From positions 2,560,001 to 2,624,000 of the forward strand of contig OY759599.1 in NCBI GenBank assembly GCA_963662465.1: a DNA stretch of 64,000 nucleotides, written 5' to 3'. Below, piece by piece: positions 34,601-43,600 of the stretch; position 1 is the stretch's first letter; each line of letters opens with the position of its first letter. The position numbers were made by a program. The DNA comes from Desulfatiglandales bacterium (lineage in GTDB: Bacteria > Desulfobacterota > DSM-4660 > Desulfatiglandales > Desulfatiglandaceae).

Positions 34601-37600
34601 GCCCGCAGTTCCCGTATACAATGAATCAAGCATTTTAGTCCTCCTTTGTGTATTAAATATTATACATTAGTTATTTTCAACCGGTTACCCGGCGTTTATG
34701 CTATCGTTTCAGGCTGTTGGCTTCCTGCATCATTTCATCGCTGGTGGTGATGACCTTGGAGTTGGCCTGATAGGCCCGTTGAATGGTAATCATTTTAACA
34801 AACTCCTGCGCCAGATCCACGTTGCTCATCTCCAGAGAACCGGAACTGATAGCGCCGCGACCCCCGGTATTGGGCGCCCCGAAAATCGCATCCCCCGAAC
34901 TCGCGGTCGACTCAAACATGCCGCCCCCGACAGCCTTCAACCCGGAGTAATTGGCGAAACCGGCCAACCCGATCTGATAAAGGGCTTTGGATTTCCCATT
35001 GGAAAAAACACCCGACACTACCCCGTTACCGTCTATACTGACATCCTCAATGGCCCCTGCGGTGCATCCGTTCTGGGTTTGGGACCCGACCGAAGAGGAA
35101 GACGCAAAGCCGGTGGCGATCAAATCCCAATCGATGGTCAAATCTCCCGCGCCACTGCTCAGCTCCTTGATGGTGATGACGGGATTGCCGTCCGTCAAAG
35201 CATTCCCCGGCGAAGGCGGATCAGCCATTTCGCCTTCATCCCATTTAGTGTTCTCCGCATCCATTTGGCCGCTTCCGTCAAATTGGATAACGCCGTAGGT
35301 TTCGCATGTGCCATCGGACGATCGCGCTGCCCAAACCCATTGGGGAGTACCTTCCTCGTTGGGCTGGTATACAAAGTCGACGGTCAAATCCACCGCATTC
35401 CCCATTGAATCATATACAGTCATGGTCGTGGAATAATTGCTCGGCACCGTGCCACCACTCAAATTTTGAGAGTCAGTGACCTCTACGGCGCCGCTGCCAT
35501 TGCCCACGGCCGTGGCCGTGACCAATTCGGCGGCATCGCTTCCGTTTACCGCATCGGCAACAGCCGCTGCTGTTATTTCTTCGGCGGCTGCCCCCCCTAA
35601 ATCCACTGTGATGGTCTTTCCGGCCACAGAAACGCTCAAACCATCCGCCCCTGAATTAACATAGCGAATGCTGATATCATTCCCATCTTCACCCGGCTCG
35701 ACCGCCGTGTAGGTGACCCCTGAAAAATTCTCACTGCACACAATGGTTGTCGATGCGGCAGCGACTTCATTGTTAAGATTCAATCGGGTCGCCATCTCCG
35801 TGGTAACAGTAGCGGGAGAGGTGGTATCGGAAAAATTAATGTCTCCCAAAGCGCCCAACGCCCCATTGGCGGTTAACTGATATCCCTGAACACTCAAACC
35901 ACTCGCATTCACCAGATTTCCGTCGGCATCCAGGTTGAAAGTTCCGGCCCTTGTATAAAAGGTTTCCCCCTCGCTGTCGGACACCATGAACAACCCTTTC
36001 CCGAGAATAGCAAGATCCGTTGCCTTGCCGGTATCCTGTAGGGTGCCCTGGTTCCACGATTCGGAAGCGCCCCAGGTCTGCCCACCCAGGGTTTCGGCAA
36101 AGACACTGGCAAATTTGTCGGTTCCTGTTTTAAATCCGATAGTATTCACATTGGAGATATTGGACCCGACCACCCCCAACGCCGTGGAATTGTTGAGCAT
36201 TCCCCTTGTTCCCGCAGACATTGCATATATCATGATGTATTCTCCTTCCTTGTTCTCTGATTGCGCGTGGGTTTACCCTAGGACTGCAGAGTCTCCAGGA
36301 CTTCAACGATGTCGCCCAGGGGGATCCGCTTTTCCCCCGCCATCAGGTAAGTGGTTCCATTTTCAAAGGTTACACCGGTAATCCTTGCCGTGGAAAAGGT
36401 TGATACCTCAATCGTGTTTCCATCGGCATCCGTCGCCGCCACATTGAAGGTATAATCGCCATCCGACACCGAGTTACCCTCCAAATCGGTTCCATCCCAG
36501 GTGAGGGACTGCTCCCCGGAATTCAACGAACCGACATTAATGGTTGCCACAAGCTTATCCGCCTCGTCATAGATCGAAATGAGGGTTCCGCTTGCATCCT
36601 CCGGCAAATCAAAACTAATTTTTTCAGAAACCCCATCCGATACGTTAATAGAATCTCCCGATGCCTTGACGGTCTTGCCTATAAAATTGACGGACTGTGC
36701 ATTGTTGATGGACGCCTGATACAAATGCAGATATTCCAGGTTTTCATTGACGTTTGTGAGCTGTTCCAGGGAACTGAACTGGGCCAGCTGAGCCGTAAAC
36801 TCCGTACTTTCCGATGGGTTGAGCGGATCCTGATTTTGAAGTTGGGTCACCAGAAGTTTCAGGAAGTCCTCTTTTCCGACAATGGACGATTCTAAAGTAT
36901 TTGTTGCGCCGCTGCTTGCGGCGACTGAACCGATTAATTCTGTGCCTGCCATTTGTTCATCCCTCCCTTGACCGGGGCATCATTCATGATAATGTACTGC
37001 ATGGTCTCATGCAAAAAAATCCACGGCGTTTTCATGGCGCATCGCTTTCGGGGTGGCATCCGCTCGTTCGGATTTTTCATCCTGCCTGGTATTCCCTTCC
37101 CTTTTTTGCCCGGCTCTCCCCTTTGTTCGATTGGCCGGTGAAGGGTTATATCCCGCCCCGTTTTTGTCTGAATCCTGGGACAGGGAAACATCAAATTTTT
37201 CAATCTCCAGTCCCTGGTTCTGAAAGTCCGCTTTGAGCTGATGGAGATTATGCTCAATCATCTCCTTGGCGACCAAGGTGTCTACCATCACTTTTACGGT
37301 AACCTGATGACTCTCGGTTAAAATACGAATTCTTAAATGCCCCAATGATTCCGGATGGAGCGACATTTTAACTTCCGATCGGCCATTTTTCAGAAGGAAC
37401 GCCGCAGTCCTGAACAACTGACCGAAACCGTTGCTCCCCTCTGACCGTTTCGGCAGTTCTTTCTCGTTGTCCGGGGCAACGATGGTATTGCTGTTATCGG
37501 ATATGGTGTACGTTTTCGGCGTTGCCTGTGTGTCCTCACCACTGACAGATTCCAGCTTTTCTGAAAGGTTATGGGAGATCTTTCCTTGGAATTGATTCGA

Positions 37601-40600: not shown

Positions 40601-43600
40601 AACCACTTTCCCCATTTCTTTCTTGACAACTTGATCAACAGACGCTTTCACGCCGCCTTTCGCAGGGGTTTTCGCTTCACTCAATGGCTCGGGGTTTGAC
40701 GAGGTTGTCTTTTTTTCAACCCTGAGCCGGGGGGATGATGCCTGGGCCTTATCCGAAAGCTTGACTCCATTCTCGGAAGACTCAGTCTCTTTCAAACCTG
40801 AAGCTTGGAACGATCCGCTCTCAGTCTTCCCAACAACCACTTTCCCCATTTCTTTCTTGACAACTTGATCAACAGACGCTTTCACGCCGCCTTTCGCAGG
40901 GGTTTTCGCTTCACTCAATGGCTCGGGGTTTGACGAGGTTGTCTTTTTTTCAACCCTGAGCCGGGGGGATGATGCCTGGGCCTTATCCGAAAGCTTGACT
41001 CCATTCTCGGAAGACTCAGTCTCTTTCAAACCTGAAGCTTGAAACGATCCGCTCTCAGTCTTCCCAATAACCACTCTCCCGTTTTCTTTCCTGACAACCT
41101 TATCAACAGGGGCCTTGACGCCGCCTTTCGCAGGGGTTTTCCCTTCCGGCAACGGCTCGGGGATTGCCGATGTTGCCTTTTTATCAACCGCCAGCCGGGA
41201 AGATGATTCCTGGGCCTTGGCCGGAAGCTTGACTCCATTCTCGGAAGACTCAGTCTCTTTCAAACCTGAACCTTGAAACGATCCGCTCTCAGTCTTCCCA
41301 ACAACCACTTTCCCCATTTCTTTCCTGACAGCCTGATCAACAGGGGCCTTTACGCCAGCTTTCACAGAGGTTTTCGCTTCAAGCATCGGCTCAGGGTTTG
41401 ACAATGTTGTCTTTTTTTCAACCGCCGGCCGGGGAGATGATGCCTGGGCCTTATCCGAAAGATTTGCTCCTCGCTCAGAAACCCCAGATTCTTTCAAACC
41501 TGAAACTTGAAACGATCCGCTCTCAGTCTTCCCAACAACCACTTTCCCCATTTCTTTCCTGACAGCCTGATCAACAGGGGCCTTTACGCCAGCTTTCACA
41601 GAGGTTTTCGCTTCAAGCATCGGCTCGGGGTTTGATGATGTTGACTTTTTATCAACCGCCGGTCGGGGGGATGATGCCTGGGCCTTATCCGAAAGATTTG
41701 CTCCTCGCTCAGAAACCCCAGATTCTTTCAAACCTGAACCTTGAAACGATCCGCTCTCAGTCTTCCCAACAAACACTTTCCCCATTTCTTTCCTGTCAAC
41801 CTCATCAACAGGGGCCTTTACGCCGGCTTTCACAGAGGTTTTCGCTTCAGGCATCGGCTCGGAGTTTGACGATGTTGTCTTTTTTTCAACCGCCTGCCGG
41901 GAAGATGATGCCTCTGCCTTCTCCGAAAGATTTGCTCCTCGCCCAGAAACCCCAGATTCTTTCAAACCTGGAACTTTAAACGATCCGCTCTTAGTCTTCC
42001 CAACAAACACTTTCCCCATTTCTTTCCTGACAACCTGATCAACAGGGGCATTGACGCCGGCTTTCACAGGGGTTTTCACTTCACTCAATGGCTCGGGGTT
42101 TGACGAGGTTGTCTTTTTTTCAACCGACAGCCGGGGGGATAATGCCTGGGCCTTCTCCGAAAGATTTGCTCCATCCTCGGAAACCCCAATCTCTTTCAAC
42201 TCAGAACCCTGAAACGCCTGTACATCATTCTTTCCAACACCCGGTTTATCAACTTCAACGCCCACTATCGATTCCCCAGTGGATTTAAACTTCTCTTTTA
42301 TGGGCAATTCCGAACTGGGACTCTTTTCAACGTTCAAAGGCATCGTAATAGGCCTGCCGCCCTGCCCTTTCATGGTCAGGGTTATGCGGCCGGTTTCGAT
42401 CGATTTTTTGGGGGTATTCAGAACGTTGATTTCCGTTTCCGATCCTGCTGAAACTGAAATAGGTTCATCTGCATGTTGTCCACTCAAAAGCGGCGTCATC
42501 AATCCCGGCAAAATCGCCTGTTCCGACTCTTCTGCCATCGGATTCACCGTCAAATCTTTGGATTCTCCATCAAACTCCCGGGTTTCCTCATCCAATTTGC
42601 CGGATTCGGCTTTTACGGATTTGGATTCGAACCGATGCCGAGGATTGGCGCCGCTCACGGCTTTCCCTGAAACAACCGAACCTTTTTCATCCTTGGCGTT
42701 CTCACCCTTTTTCCAGCCCGAAACACCATGAGAGGAAAAACCGGCCTTATGCTCATCAGCCACGGCCGCAAAGGTGGAAAGAAAACCATTCCCACTCTGC
42801 TCCGATTCACAAACCCCTTTGGGAGTTCTTGAAAAAACCGCATCTTGATGTGGCATTATGAGGATGTTGTTCAGCATATTCTTGTTTCCGGATAGTCTTA
42901 AGAGAAACATTTCATTTTCACGGAAGACTTAATGCAACAGATATGCCGAAAATAGGGCGTCAAAATGATCCAGATGCTCGAATGATCATTGCCACACAAA
43001 GACATTCTGACATAACATACCAGTATCATTATACCTATTATCCAACACCGCAATGAAGCCACAACCCAACAAGCGACCATTCCGCAGGTTGAATCCACCT
43101 CATAAGGGGAAAATCACTCGTAAAACATGGGCAACTTTTTCCCCTCATCGCCTGTTTCTTCCTAGCGAGATGACGAAGGAACTCGTTTTTTAGAAATCGA
43201 CCCCAAACAAAAAGGTGGGCACAAGACCCGCCCCTACGTGCGTTTGTGGGGCAAAAAATTGGTAGGGTTAAAATAATGGATATTGGTGTGGAAAGTTGGA
43301 TGGGGGTGAAAAAAATTGCTTGCTTAAATCCTGAAATGAGGCATTATCTTCATGTCGGACTCTTAAGGTTCTTAAATCCATTGATGGCGATTTCGTCCAT
43401 CTCTTTTTGTTCTTTTCGTTGCAGTTCCAGTTTGTGGGCCTTCAATCGGTTCTGCTTCAATTGATCAACGGTCTTGCGCTTCTTAACGGCTTCGATCAGC
43501 TTATTGCGCTTCTTTTGGATATTGTTTTCAAGCCGTACAATCGTCTTATGCTGCACCTTTATCTGTGTGGAGACCCGCCCGATAAAATCGCTGTAAAGCG

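Follow-up and report, generated by a model that had tools for sequence, protein, structure and literature searches.

The window analyzed here, a 64,000-nucleotide stretch from a Desulfatiglandales bacterium (genome G000), carries a gene for the flagellar hook-length ruler FliK whose product, at 1956 amino acids (aa), is more than threefold longer than usual, most of it being a single tandemly repeated unit. Does so large a protein still measure the hook, and if so, what length would it set? The features that bear on this question are as follows.

19832..20902 (-), flhB, the switch partner, with PF01312 and an intact NPTH motif, which we take to be the FlhB cleavage motif
31511..34633 (-), flgE2, 1040 aa, in which the 95-aa domain inserted in flgE1 recurs as six full or near-full copies, plus fragments (Pfam, domain comparison)
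34701..36233 (-), flgE1, 510 aa, carrying a single inserted domain of 95 aa that weakly resembles phage sheath domain II (PF17481, E 1.8e-5, below the cut-off of that profile)
36278..36952 (-), flgD, hook cap (PF03963, PF13860)
37007..42877 (-), fliK, 1956 aa (ORF, TRF, Pfam, comparison with the sister genome G099)
37007..37426 (-), C-terminal T3S4 switch domain of FliK with its PxxLG motif, plus tail (PF02120 at 37166-37399; 2RRL alignment, E 0.006; dN/dS 0.21)
37427..37894 (-), linker of 156 aa from array to switch domain, equal in length and 80% identical in G099 (dN/dS 0.34)
37895..42199 (-), array of 18.4 units of 78 aa (234 bp), 1435 aa (TRF, unit comparison, AlphaFold)
42200..42877 (-), N-terminal 226 aa of FliK, presumed export signal and ruler start (73% identity to G099, dN/dS 0.42)
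42933..42948 (-), sigma-54-like site upstream of fliK, one mismatch to what we take to be the -24/-12 consensus
43350..43796 (-), fliJ, upstream neighbor of fliK (PF02050)

The observation is real: G000 encodes a FliK of 1956 aa, counted from the ATG at 42877, in which the switch domain is intact and 18.4 units follow one another in frame. The protein had been described as the only FliK of the genome, which is borne out by a profile search of the whole genome, where fliK is the sole PF02120 gene (residues 1839-1915 in 1967-aa numbering, E 2e-17, 63.1 bits versus a cut-off of 29.8). The gene lies in the canonical order fliJ-fliK-flgD-flgE within a conserved flagellar cluster. FliK and FlhB form a textbook pair, and the PF01312 match and NPTH motif point to a cleavable FlhB partner in this genome. 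Alignment to the Salmonella FliK structure 2RRL pairs LHPESLGHLRI with LHPEELGQVHI, such that both the Pro-x-x-Leu-Gly signature of T3S4 domains (PMC2835726) and the hydrophobic pair equivalent to V302 and I304, which contact FlhB in Salmonella (PMC6972891), are present. The export signal is presumed to lie in the N-terminal 226 aa by analogy with Salmonella FliK.

The full open frame (37007-42910, minus strand) would give 1967 aa from its first ATG. However, translation likely starts at the second ATG, at 42877, because the G099 and G098 orthologues start there and the ribosome site is better (-3.5 versus +0.3 kcal/mol), although it is weak beside those of flgD and flgE (-9 to -12). The GGCA-N6-TTGCA motif of the sigma-54-like site also occurs at a comparable distance upstream of fliK in G099, G098, and G094. 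Because sigma-54-like matches across the whole window do not exceed chance (15 versus 10.6), this conserved position is the sole support for the site. Many family genomes carry a second PF02120 gene of ~365 aa before flgF, and a shorter FliK might do the measuring. We reject this candidate, since tblastn of G000 with three such paralogues (354-366 aa) from other family genomes returned no match and both ORFs before flgF (87 and 152 aa) lack PF02120.

The proposal that about 1400 aa consist of 18 exact-period repeats in the ruler region agrees with our analysis. TRF finds a single array (37902-42199, period 234, 18.4 copies, 91% matches, 0% indels, score 6294), far above chance. Its 18 complete units keep an exact register, differ pairwise by 0-42 nt, and include 15 distinct sequences. 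The array makes up 73% of the chain, on the ruler side of the switch domain, and extends for 4.3 kb free of stops and frameshifts. It is a mosaic of unit sub-types with block duplications offset by 1, 6, and 7 units (exact runs of 316, 624, and 515 nt). The encoded sequence is rich in K, S, V, E, and G, with 6.8% Pro and a net charge of +64. AlphaFold of three units gave a pLDDT of 38.6 and no helix, which is weak evidence given an alignment of 12 rows, and predicted with low confidence a beta-hairpin in each unit. By composition, and weakly by this prediction, FliK has the long, low-complexity, unstructured N-terminal part of its ruler class. The units evolve almost neutrally (dN/dS ~0.7, versus 0.21 for the switch domain).

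No match to the 78-aa unit that might reveal its origin was found in 39 other FliKs, in 103 of the 104 family genomes, among 240 pattern matches in metagenome contigs, or in the ESM Atlas (best 0.79). Against 1.84 billion representatives, the eight matches were seven fragments from close relatives plus an unrelated repetitive protein of 5817 aa. Rfam gave no match within the window. Many units contain an ATG after a weak AGGA (-4.3 kcal/mol), which could in principle start nested rulers, but we reject this reading because the G099 units have no Met.

The initial annotation cautioned that short-read bins may collapse repeats. Short-read unitig depths agree with the assembled copy numbers. For the 11 array unitigs listed (runs X1 and X2), depth over flank versus 31-mer multiplicity in the assembly was, for example, 7.24 versus 6.95, 3.03 versus 3.11, 2.09 versus 2.28, and 1.05 versus 1.06, and at worst 2.50 versus 3.12. 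Because X1 and X2 represent one sample, possibly the assembly's own source, these depths test the assembly and are not independent sampling. An over-expanded or mis-joined array might be suspected from the exact runs as long as 624 nt and from the fact that no public contig spans it. However, depths track assembled multiplicities, 15 of the 18 units are distinct, and a second genome and other contigs bear arrays with unit types of their own. We therefore regard an artefact as very improbable. As to copy-number variation within the species, the listed public contigs, a kind of sequence that drops rare variants, show no joint inside the array.

How the array relates to ruler length is seen among the congeners, whose FliKs measure 1261, 698, and 514 aa. 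The longest, from G099, has the length given previously, but 9.4 units rather than 10. Without the array, FliK is 521 aa in G000 and 528 aa in G099, near the median of ~585 aa in 40 genomes of the order and phylum, and the two proteins differ by 695 aa, or about nine units (702 aa). Because the remainder is near-constant, FliK length differs between these sister genomes by unit number (18.4 versus 9.4), as had been claimed. Thus, close relatives differ by whole units, as expected of a repeat-variable ruler. The other congeners, said to be free of repeats, are so only for the 78-aa unit; the G094 FliK bears a 34-aa repeat and that of G008 a 39-41-aa repeat. We also reproduced PF02120 matches in 48 of 104 other family genomes, with best frames no longer than 880 aa apart from one of 1268, although some short frames end at contig ends or N gaps (four of five checked).

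The implied uniqueness of a repeat-expanded FliK is overstated, given that repeat variation is published for YscP, that spacer duplications are common, and that other FliKs exceed 1000 aa. Smaller spacer duplications occur in 14 of 80 other FliKs (family 6/30, order and phylum 4/40, long-frame 4/10). Within the phylum, another three FliKs are longer than 1000 aa (G435, 1276; G140, 1222; G165, 1090 aa), and these likewise have a spacer lengthened partly by tandem duplication. Unlike the G000 protein, they have unrelated sequence and few long copies, no single long unit forms most of the protein, and no sister genome differs by nine units. Long frames in G261 and G458 appear, by eye, inflated by in-frame upstream sequence and were set aside. 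A word search, which sees close relatives only, found one switch-domain relative among 183 candidates of 1081-3443 aa, the G099 protein. In listings of the non-subscription literature searched, we found neither a natural repeat-expanded or giant FliK nor a hook measurement for this order.

Novelty is limited because repeat-number variation of rulers is already published for Yersinia YscP, whose internal repeats of 14, 25, and 46 aa vary in number between strains (protein length 452-538 aa) and whose needle length is linear with ruler size (PMC3469391, excerpt). In contrast, the G000 FliK has flagellar rather than injectisome neighbors, the difference is nine units and 700 aa rather than about three repeats and 86 aa. 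Relative to Salmonella enterica FliK (405 aa), it shares the T3S4 domain with PxxLG, hydrophobic residues at the V302 and I304 places, a disordered N-terminal part, and an intact FlhB partner, but is 4.8 times longer, and has 73% of its chain in one tandem unit predicted to be non-helical.

We consider it somewhat more probable than otherwise that this FliK is a functional ruler whose units add length. By analogy with Salmonella, FliK would be made at a low level and pass, N-terminus leading, through the elongating rod and hook; its C-terminal domain would trigger the FlhB switch only once the preceding chain fits the channel. As the sequence shows, one 78-aa spacer piece private to the lineage has multiplied by unequal recombination, and each species has homogenised its copies on its own. 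The units would serve as length rather than as a folded or sequence-specific module, as dN/dS and folding suggest; a unit dN/dS of 0.7 is just as compatible with pure tolerated filler. Engineered rulers longer than 785 aa were reportedly described by Erhardt et al. in 2011. Hook length is linear with FliK insertions (PMC6126814, excerpt; PMC6972891), and the Salmonella scaling invoked in the initial annotation is in print as 0.2 nm per inserted residue, for 363-785 aa and helical YscP inserts only (PMC6126814, excerpt). Those FliK-YscP chimeras, with hooks of 42-135 nm, also carry extra residues before the switch domain, whereas the G000 protein is natural and far longer, lying 2.5-fold beyond the longest ruler of that calibration (785 aa).

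Each unit would add ~16 nm at 0.2 nm per residue, or at most 29 nm if fully extended. Extrapolating the Salmonella line predicts hooks of ~365 nm in G000, 226 nm in G099, and 77-114 nm in G094 and G098. YscP with less helix gives longer needles (reviewed in PMC2835726), and if the Pro/Gly-rich units are extended, the G000 hook could reach ~600 nm, such that the extrapolated range is ~350-600 nm. Long hooks lower Salmonella motility (PMC6126814, excerpt), modelling of very long rulers predicts that many bases fail to switch and that variance is wide (bioRxiv 766733), and shortened FliKs give hooks that are not proportionally shorter (bioRxiv 2020.03.25.007062).

One alternative, which we judge unlikely but by no means negligible, is that FliK works while the repeats count for little, owing to compaction in the channel, proteolytic trimming, or other switch timing, leaving the hook near normal or far below the prediction. 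Near-neutral unit evolution, the frequency of spacer duplications in other FliKs, the low-confidence hairpins, and the interchangeability of Spa32, InvJ, and YscP in Shigella despite their different sizes (PMC2835726) are consistent with such filler. However, an export channel ~2 nm wide leaves little space for looping out 1400 residues, and insertions lengthened hooks in all flagellar experiments examined. It is also conceivable, but improbable in our view, that the array is a runaway expansion in a fading system, in which an oversized ruler switches poorly, yields polyhooks or few filaments, and persists under weak selection for motility. Seven of 10 congeners lack a PF02120 match, three of these being at least 93% complete, and motility is therefore dispensable in the genus. 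Decay could likewise be read from the mobile DNA that has entered the cluster, where a group II intron separates fliM from fliN and a cassette follows flgE2, and from a flagellin moved from its G099 place and a second one broken. The fragmentary state of the repeat's closest database relatives and a one-base break in G099 motA point the same way, although both might just as well be long-read errors.

Against a fading system, the array has remained open over its full length and the switch domain is constrained. Eight other flagellar genes have dN/dS of 0.06-0.22 versus G099, and over 10 genes the G000 branch shows no replacement excess (55 replacement versus 133 silent, compared with 61 versus 131 on the G099 branch) and thus no relaxation. 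The genes for rod, ring, motor, export, junction, and flagellin have open frames and Pfam matches. FliD has no match in G000, but because it is also missing in G099, G098, G094, and G008 and its loss accompanies a Caulobacter-like flagellin, FlbT, and FlaF, we do not read this as decay. A divergent, intact 385-aa flagellin lies with FlbT and FlaF at G000:2535711-2537704, by which we reject a flagellin-less polyhook propeller.

The two FlgE paralogues with extra domains, like the Caulobacter-like flagellin and missing FliD, also set this system apart from that of Salmonella enterica. One possibility, which we hold doubtful, is that FlgE2 acquired outer domains that would make the hook stiffer, and that a longer ruler evolved to regain bending; as a version of the working ruler with a specific cause, its probability is not additive to that reading. 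Second FlgE lengths of 1040, 943, and 753 aa were reproduced, although the fetched G094 locus contains no second FlgE, and the inserted domain occurs in six full or near-full copies in G000, five in G099, and three in G098. FlgE2 fold prediction has low confidence (pLDDT 50); its fold search gave only FlgE matches at E<=0.001, with the insert not placed, and no best stretch of the sequence search fell within the insert. Campylobacter jejuni FlgE (851 aa in 5JXL) is similarly enlarged by outer domains (D3, D4), which strengthen its hook (PMC5097172), whereas in FlgE2 a single 95-aa domain is present at least six times. In this genus, the length of FliK increases with that of the largest FlgE (514/409, 698/753, 1261/943, 1956/1040), and in the family they correlate (rho 0.49, n=27, p 0.009; contrasts r 0.63, sign-flip p 0.04). 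When the three long congeners are omitted, this weakens (rho 0.28, p 0.18). Only 12 of 26 contrasts have the same sign, and outside the family the correlation fails (rho 0.11, n=40, p 0.51), where FlgEs of 940, 796, and 777 aa sit beside FliKs of 580, 595, and 496 aa. The hinted co-variation is thus confined to the family, and general coupling is unsupported.

Independently of the organism, the array offers a ready graded series of a natural non-helical spacer, and a useful natural test of ruler scaling. It could reveal where ruler control fails and whether a residue counts for 0.2 nm (helical) or as much as 0.37 nm (extended); a hook of normal length would be a clear case in nature where the ruler model does not hold. 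We tentatively speculate, while thinking it unlikely as a whole, that the organism builds a controlled hook of 0.35-0.6 micrometre, thickened by the six or more extra domains of FlgE2 and topped by a FliD-less filament. Such a hook would be a long flexible stalk whose length is set differently in sister species through the number of repeats, perhaps to help cells reorient or wrap within the pores of sediment. Hook length is regarded as optimised in a narrow range, 55 nm in Salmonella, with longer hooks impairing swimming (PMC6126814, excerpt). If true, a hook that is maintained in nature at six to ten times this length would show another mechanical design to be workable.

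The fliK open reading frame spans window positions 37007-42910 on the minus strand and encodes 1967 aa from its first ATG, or 1956 aa from the ATG at 42877, which is the start used by fliK orthologues and the one with the stronger ribosome site. A sigma-54-like site lies 56 bases upstream and is also found in the sister genome (G099) and in two further congeners (G098 and G094). TRF reports a period of 234 with 18.4 copies and 0 indels, and the protein is laid out as follows:

N-terminus, 226 aa, first segment
Repeat array, 1435 aa, after the N-terminus
Linker, 156 aa, between array and switch domain
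Switch domain and tail, 139 aa, C-terminal

A PF02120 profile match lies near the C-terminus, which can be aligned with the Salmonella switch-domain structure 2RRL, and this protein is the sole PF02120 match in the 8.16-Mb single-contig genome. AlphaFold modeling of three units gave no confident fold and no helix. By every feature tested, the protein is a true FliK; its length is extreme, and so is the share of it taken up by one unit.

The gene order is fliJ-fliK-flgD-flgE1-flgE2-(cassette)-motA, within a cluster of rod, ring, motor, export, FlhF/FlhG-like, FliA, FlgM, and chemotaxis genes (the scan omitted a FliQ-sized ORF, FliS, and FliT). FlgK and FlgL lie immediately beyond the window edge, and further out is the flagellin:

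G000:C1:2535711-2537704 (locus L058), intact flagellin of 385 aa with FlbT and FlaF, about 22 kb further out

Its best solved relatives are the Caulobacter-type flagellins FljM and FljK. G098 and G099 likewise combine a Caulobacter-like flagellin, FlbT, and FlaF with a lack of FliD; the flagellin of other family members is canonical. FliD_C had no match in the genome under study (G000), G099, G098, G094, or the family genome G008, and matched in another, G061. This gene content suggests that the filament module was replaced in this Desulfatiglandales genus. TPR-glycosyltransferases, a sulfotransferase, and a transposase surround the flagellin (G000:C1:2521001-2561000; L057, L058), an island that is probably for flagellar glycosylation. 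A second flagellin-like gene (G000:C1:1530699-1532396; L056, L066) is disrupted, falling into three frames, and has a large insert lacking a Pfam family.

Several other features accompany the locus. An element at about 23568-25541 on the minus strand, between fliM and fliN, contains an ORF (23660-24859) for a group II intron reverse transcriptase/maturase (TIGR04416); it is missing from G099 and has three further 99% identical copies in the genome. Group II introns usually start with GUGYG. Because two copies of the element instead start with GTTTT, and Rfam gave 0 matches in the window at gathering score, it may be an atypical group II intron. The cassette between flgE2 and motA (29598-31423), also missing from G099, carries an AAA_21 ATPase and, on the opposite strand, an ORF of 180 aa with no known function; a 20-bp direct repeat flanks the cassette. 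The motA gene of G099 (L031:4102-4871) is split by a one-base gap, either a sequencing error or a pseudogene. Many family and order genomes encode a second PF02120 protein of 354-378 aa just before flgF (e.g., L035:6413-7513, L042:6086-7150, L037:5836-6927), and 87- and 152-aa ORFs take its place here (13666-14404). Elsewhere, tandem rRNA operons (G000:C1:6654536-6665710) have three 16S rRNA 3′ ends about 5.5 kb apart.

Reads from two runs, which represent one sample and possibly the source of the assembly, agree with both array flanks with 0 differences and yield short unitigs inside the array. For 11 array pieces, depth relative to the flanks tracks assembly 31-mer multiplicity, from 0.8-1.2 (single-copy) up to 7.24 versus 6.95. 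Because these pieces are a minority and none spans the array, the depths support about 18 copies but not the unit order.

PF02120 was found in 48 of 104 other family genomes and, as the initial annotation held, the best frames reach at most 880 aa with G099 as the sole exception; its array, however, has 9.4 units rather than 10. Order-wide (98 of 209 genomes), the next longest frame is 891 aa. The length contrast does not come from repeats collapsed in short-read bins, a concern raised by that annotation, because several order genomes in one to four contigs also have frames of 564-880 aa, although four of five short family frames checked were truncated.

Of 105 family genomes, 2 contain the 78-aa unit. 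Units within G099 are 0-14 nt apart, but every G000 unit differs from any of them at no fewer than 67 of 234 nt, and each array was therefore expanded or homogenized on its own. The G000 array has a mosaic structure, in which blocks were duplicated at offsets of 1, 6, and 7 units. Thirteen database fragments, which length labels assign to four contigs, represent close relatives; further unit types are present in ten of them, and one contig has at least about 7 units. These repeat fragments may be sequencing errors or pseudogenes.

Nei–Gojobori counts against G099, whose pairs are non-independent, put dN/dS at 0.06-0.22 in eight flagellar genes and at 0.31 in FlgE2. In FliK, the switch domain has 0.21, the flanks 0.34-0.42, and the units about 0.7, both within and between arrays. 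When G098 serves as outgroup, 55 replacement and 133 silent changes across 10 genes fall on the G000 branch, similar to the G099 branch. The flagellar genes thus look maintained as a system, and the sequence of the units appears barely to matter.

In a phylum sample (PF02120 in 234 of 401 genomes), at least 5 other frames exceed 1000 aa among 150 of 359 matches listed; of five such frames, three are real long FliKs (1276, 1222, and 1090 aa) and two look inflated. Internal duplications occur in 6 of 30 family, 4 of 10 long-frame, and 4 of 40 further FliKs. Like this FliK, Yersinia YscP differs in repeat number between relatives, as reported for strains in PMC3469391. This kind of variation has its precedent in YscP and is seen repeatedly among FliKs; judged from literature listings, no paper describing a natural repeat-expanded FliK was found. 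For the FliK studied here, the sister genome serves as a natural control.

FlgE2 (31511-34633, 1040 aa) contains a 95-aa insert with weak likeness to phage sheath domain II in six copies that are complete or nearly so (a six- to seven-fold repeat); G099 FlgE2 has five, G098 three, and FlgE1 one, and G000, G099, and G098 all carry the tandem FlgE pair. Across 27 family genomes (31 minus the truncated G081, G086, G016, and G039), FliK and largest FlgE lengths correlate (rho 0.49, p 0.009). Leaving out the three long congeners lowers rho to 0.28 (p 0.18), and leaving out three FlgE below 300 aa raises it to 0.76. By contrasts, r is 0.63 (p 0.04), with the same sign in only 12 of 26. Outside the family, rho is 0.11 (p 0.51) in 40 genomes chosen by hand from the match lists to spread across genera and families, with starts set by rule. 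The coupling is local at most. In three genomes (G008, G104, G084; L039, L043, L073), flgD is followed by a FlgE of only 258-279 aa, the size of a FlgG, and FliK has 641-692 aa.

Domain order, unit number, a constant remainder, and the constraint pattern are established for this FliK. Its export, hook measurement, and FlhB switching would proceed by analogy with Salmonella, as described in PMC6972891 and PMC13344023. A hook several times the usual length, as first proposed, stands as a prediction only: 55 + 0.2 × (N − 405) nm, with a slope from PMC6126814 valid for 363-785 aa only, extrapolates to 365 nm for G000, 226 nm for G099, and 114 and 77 nm for the other two congeners. Fully extended, at the limit of 0.37 nm per residue given in PMC6972891, the array alone would measure 530 nm. 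Counting against a simple ruler reading are reports that short FliKs do not scale hooks down (bioRxiv 2020.03.25.007062), that very long rulers leave bases unswitched in a model (bioRxiv 766733), and that long hooks worsen Salmonella swimming (PMC6126814). On balance, we lean slightly toward an extrapolated hook length of at least a third of a micrometre. We speculate that a long hook could bring benefits of the kind reported for non-chemotactic Agrobacterium, in which polyhook-forming fliK mutants spread better in agar (PMC4358000), or for Vibrio, which is steered by hook buckling (PMC6680979).
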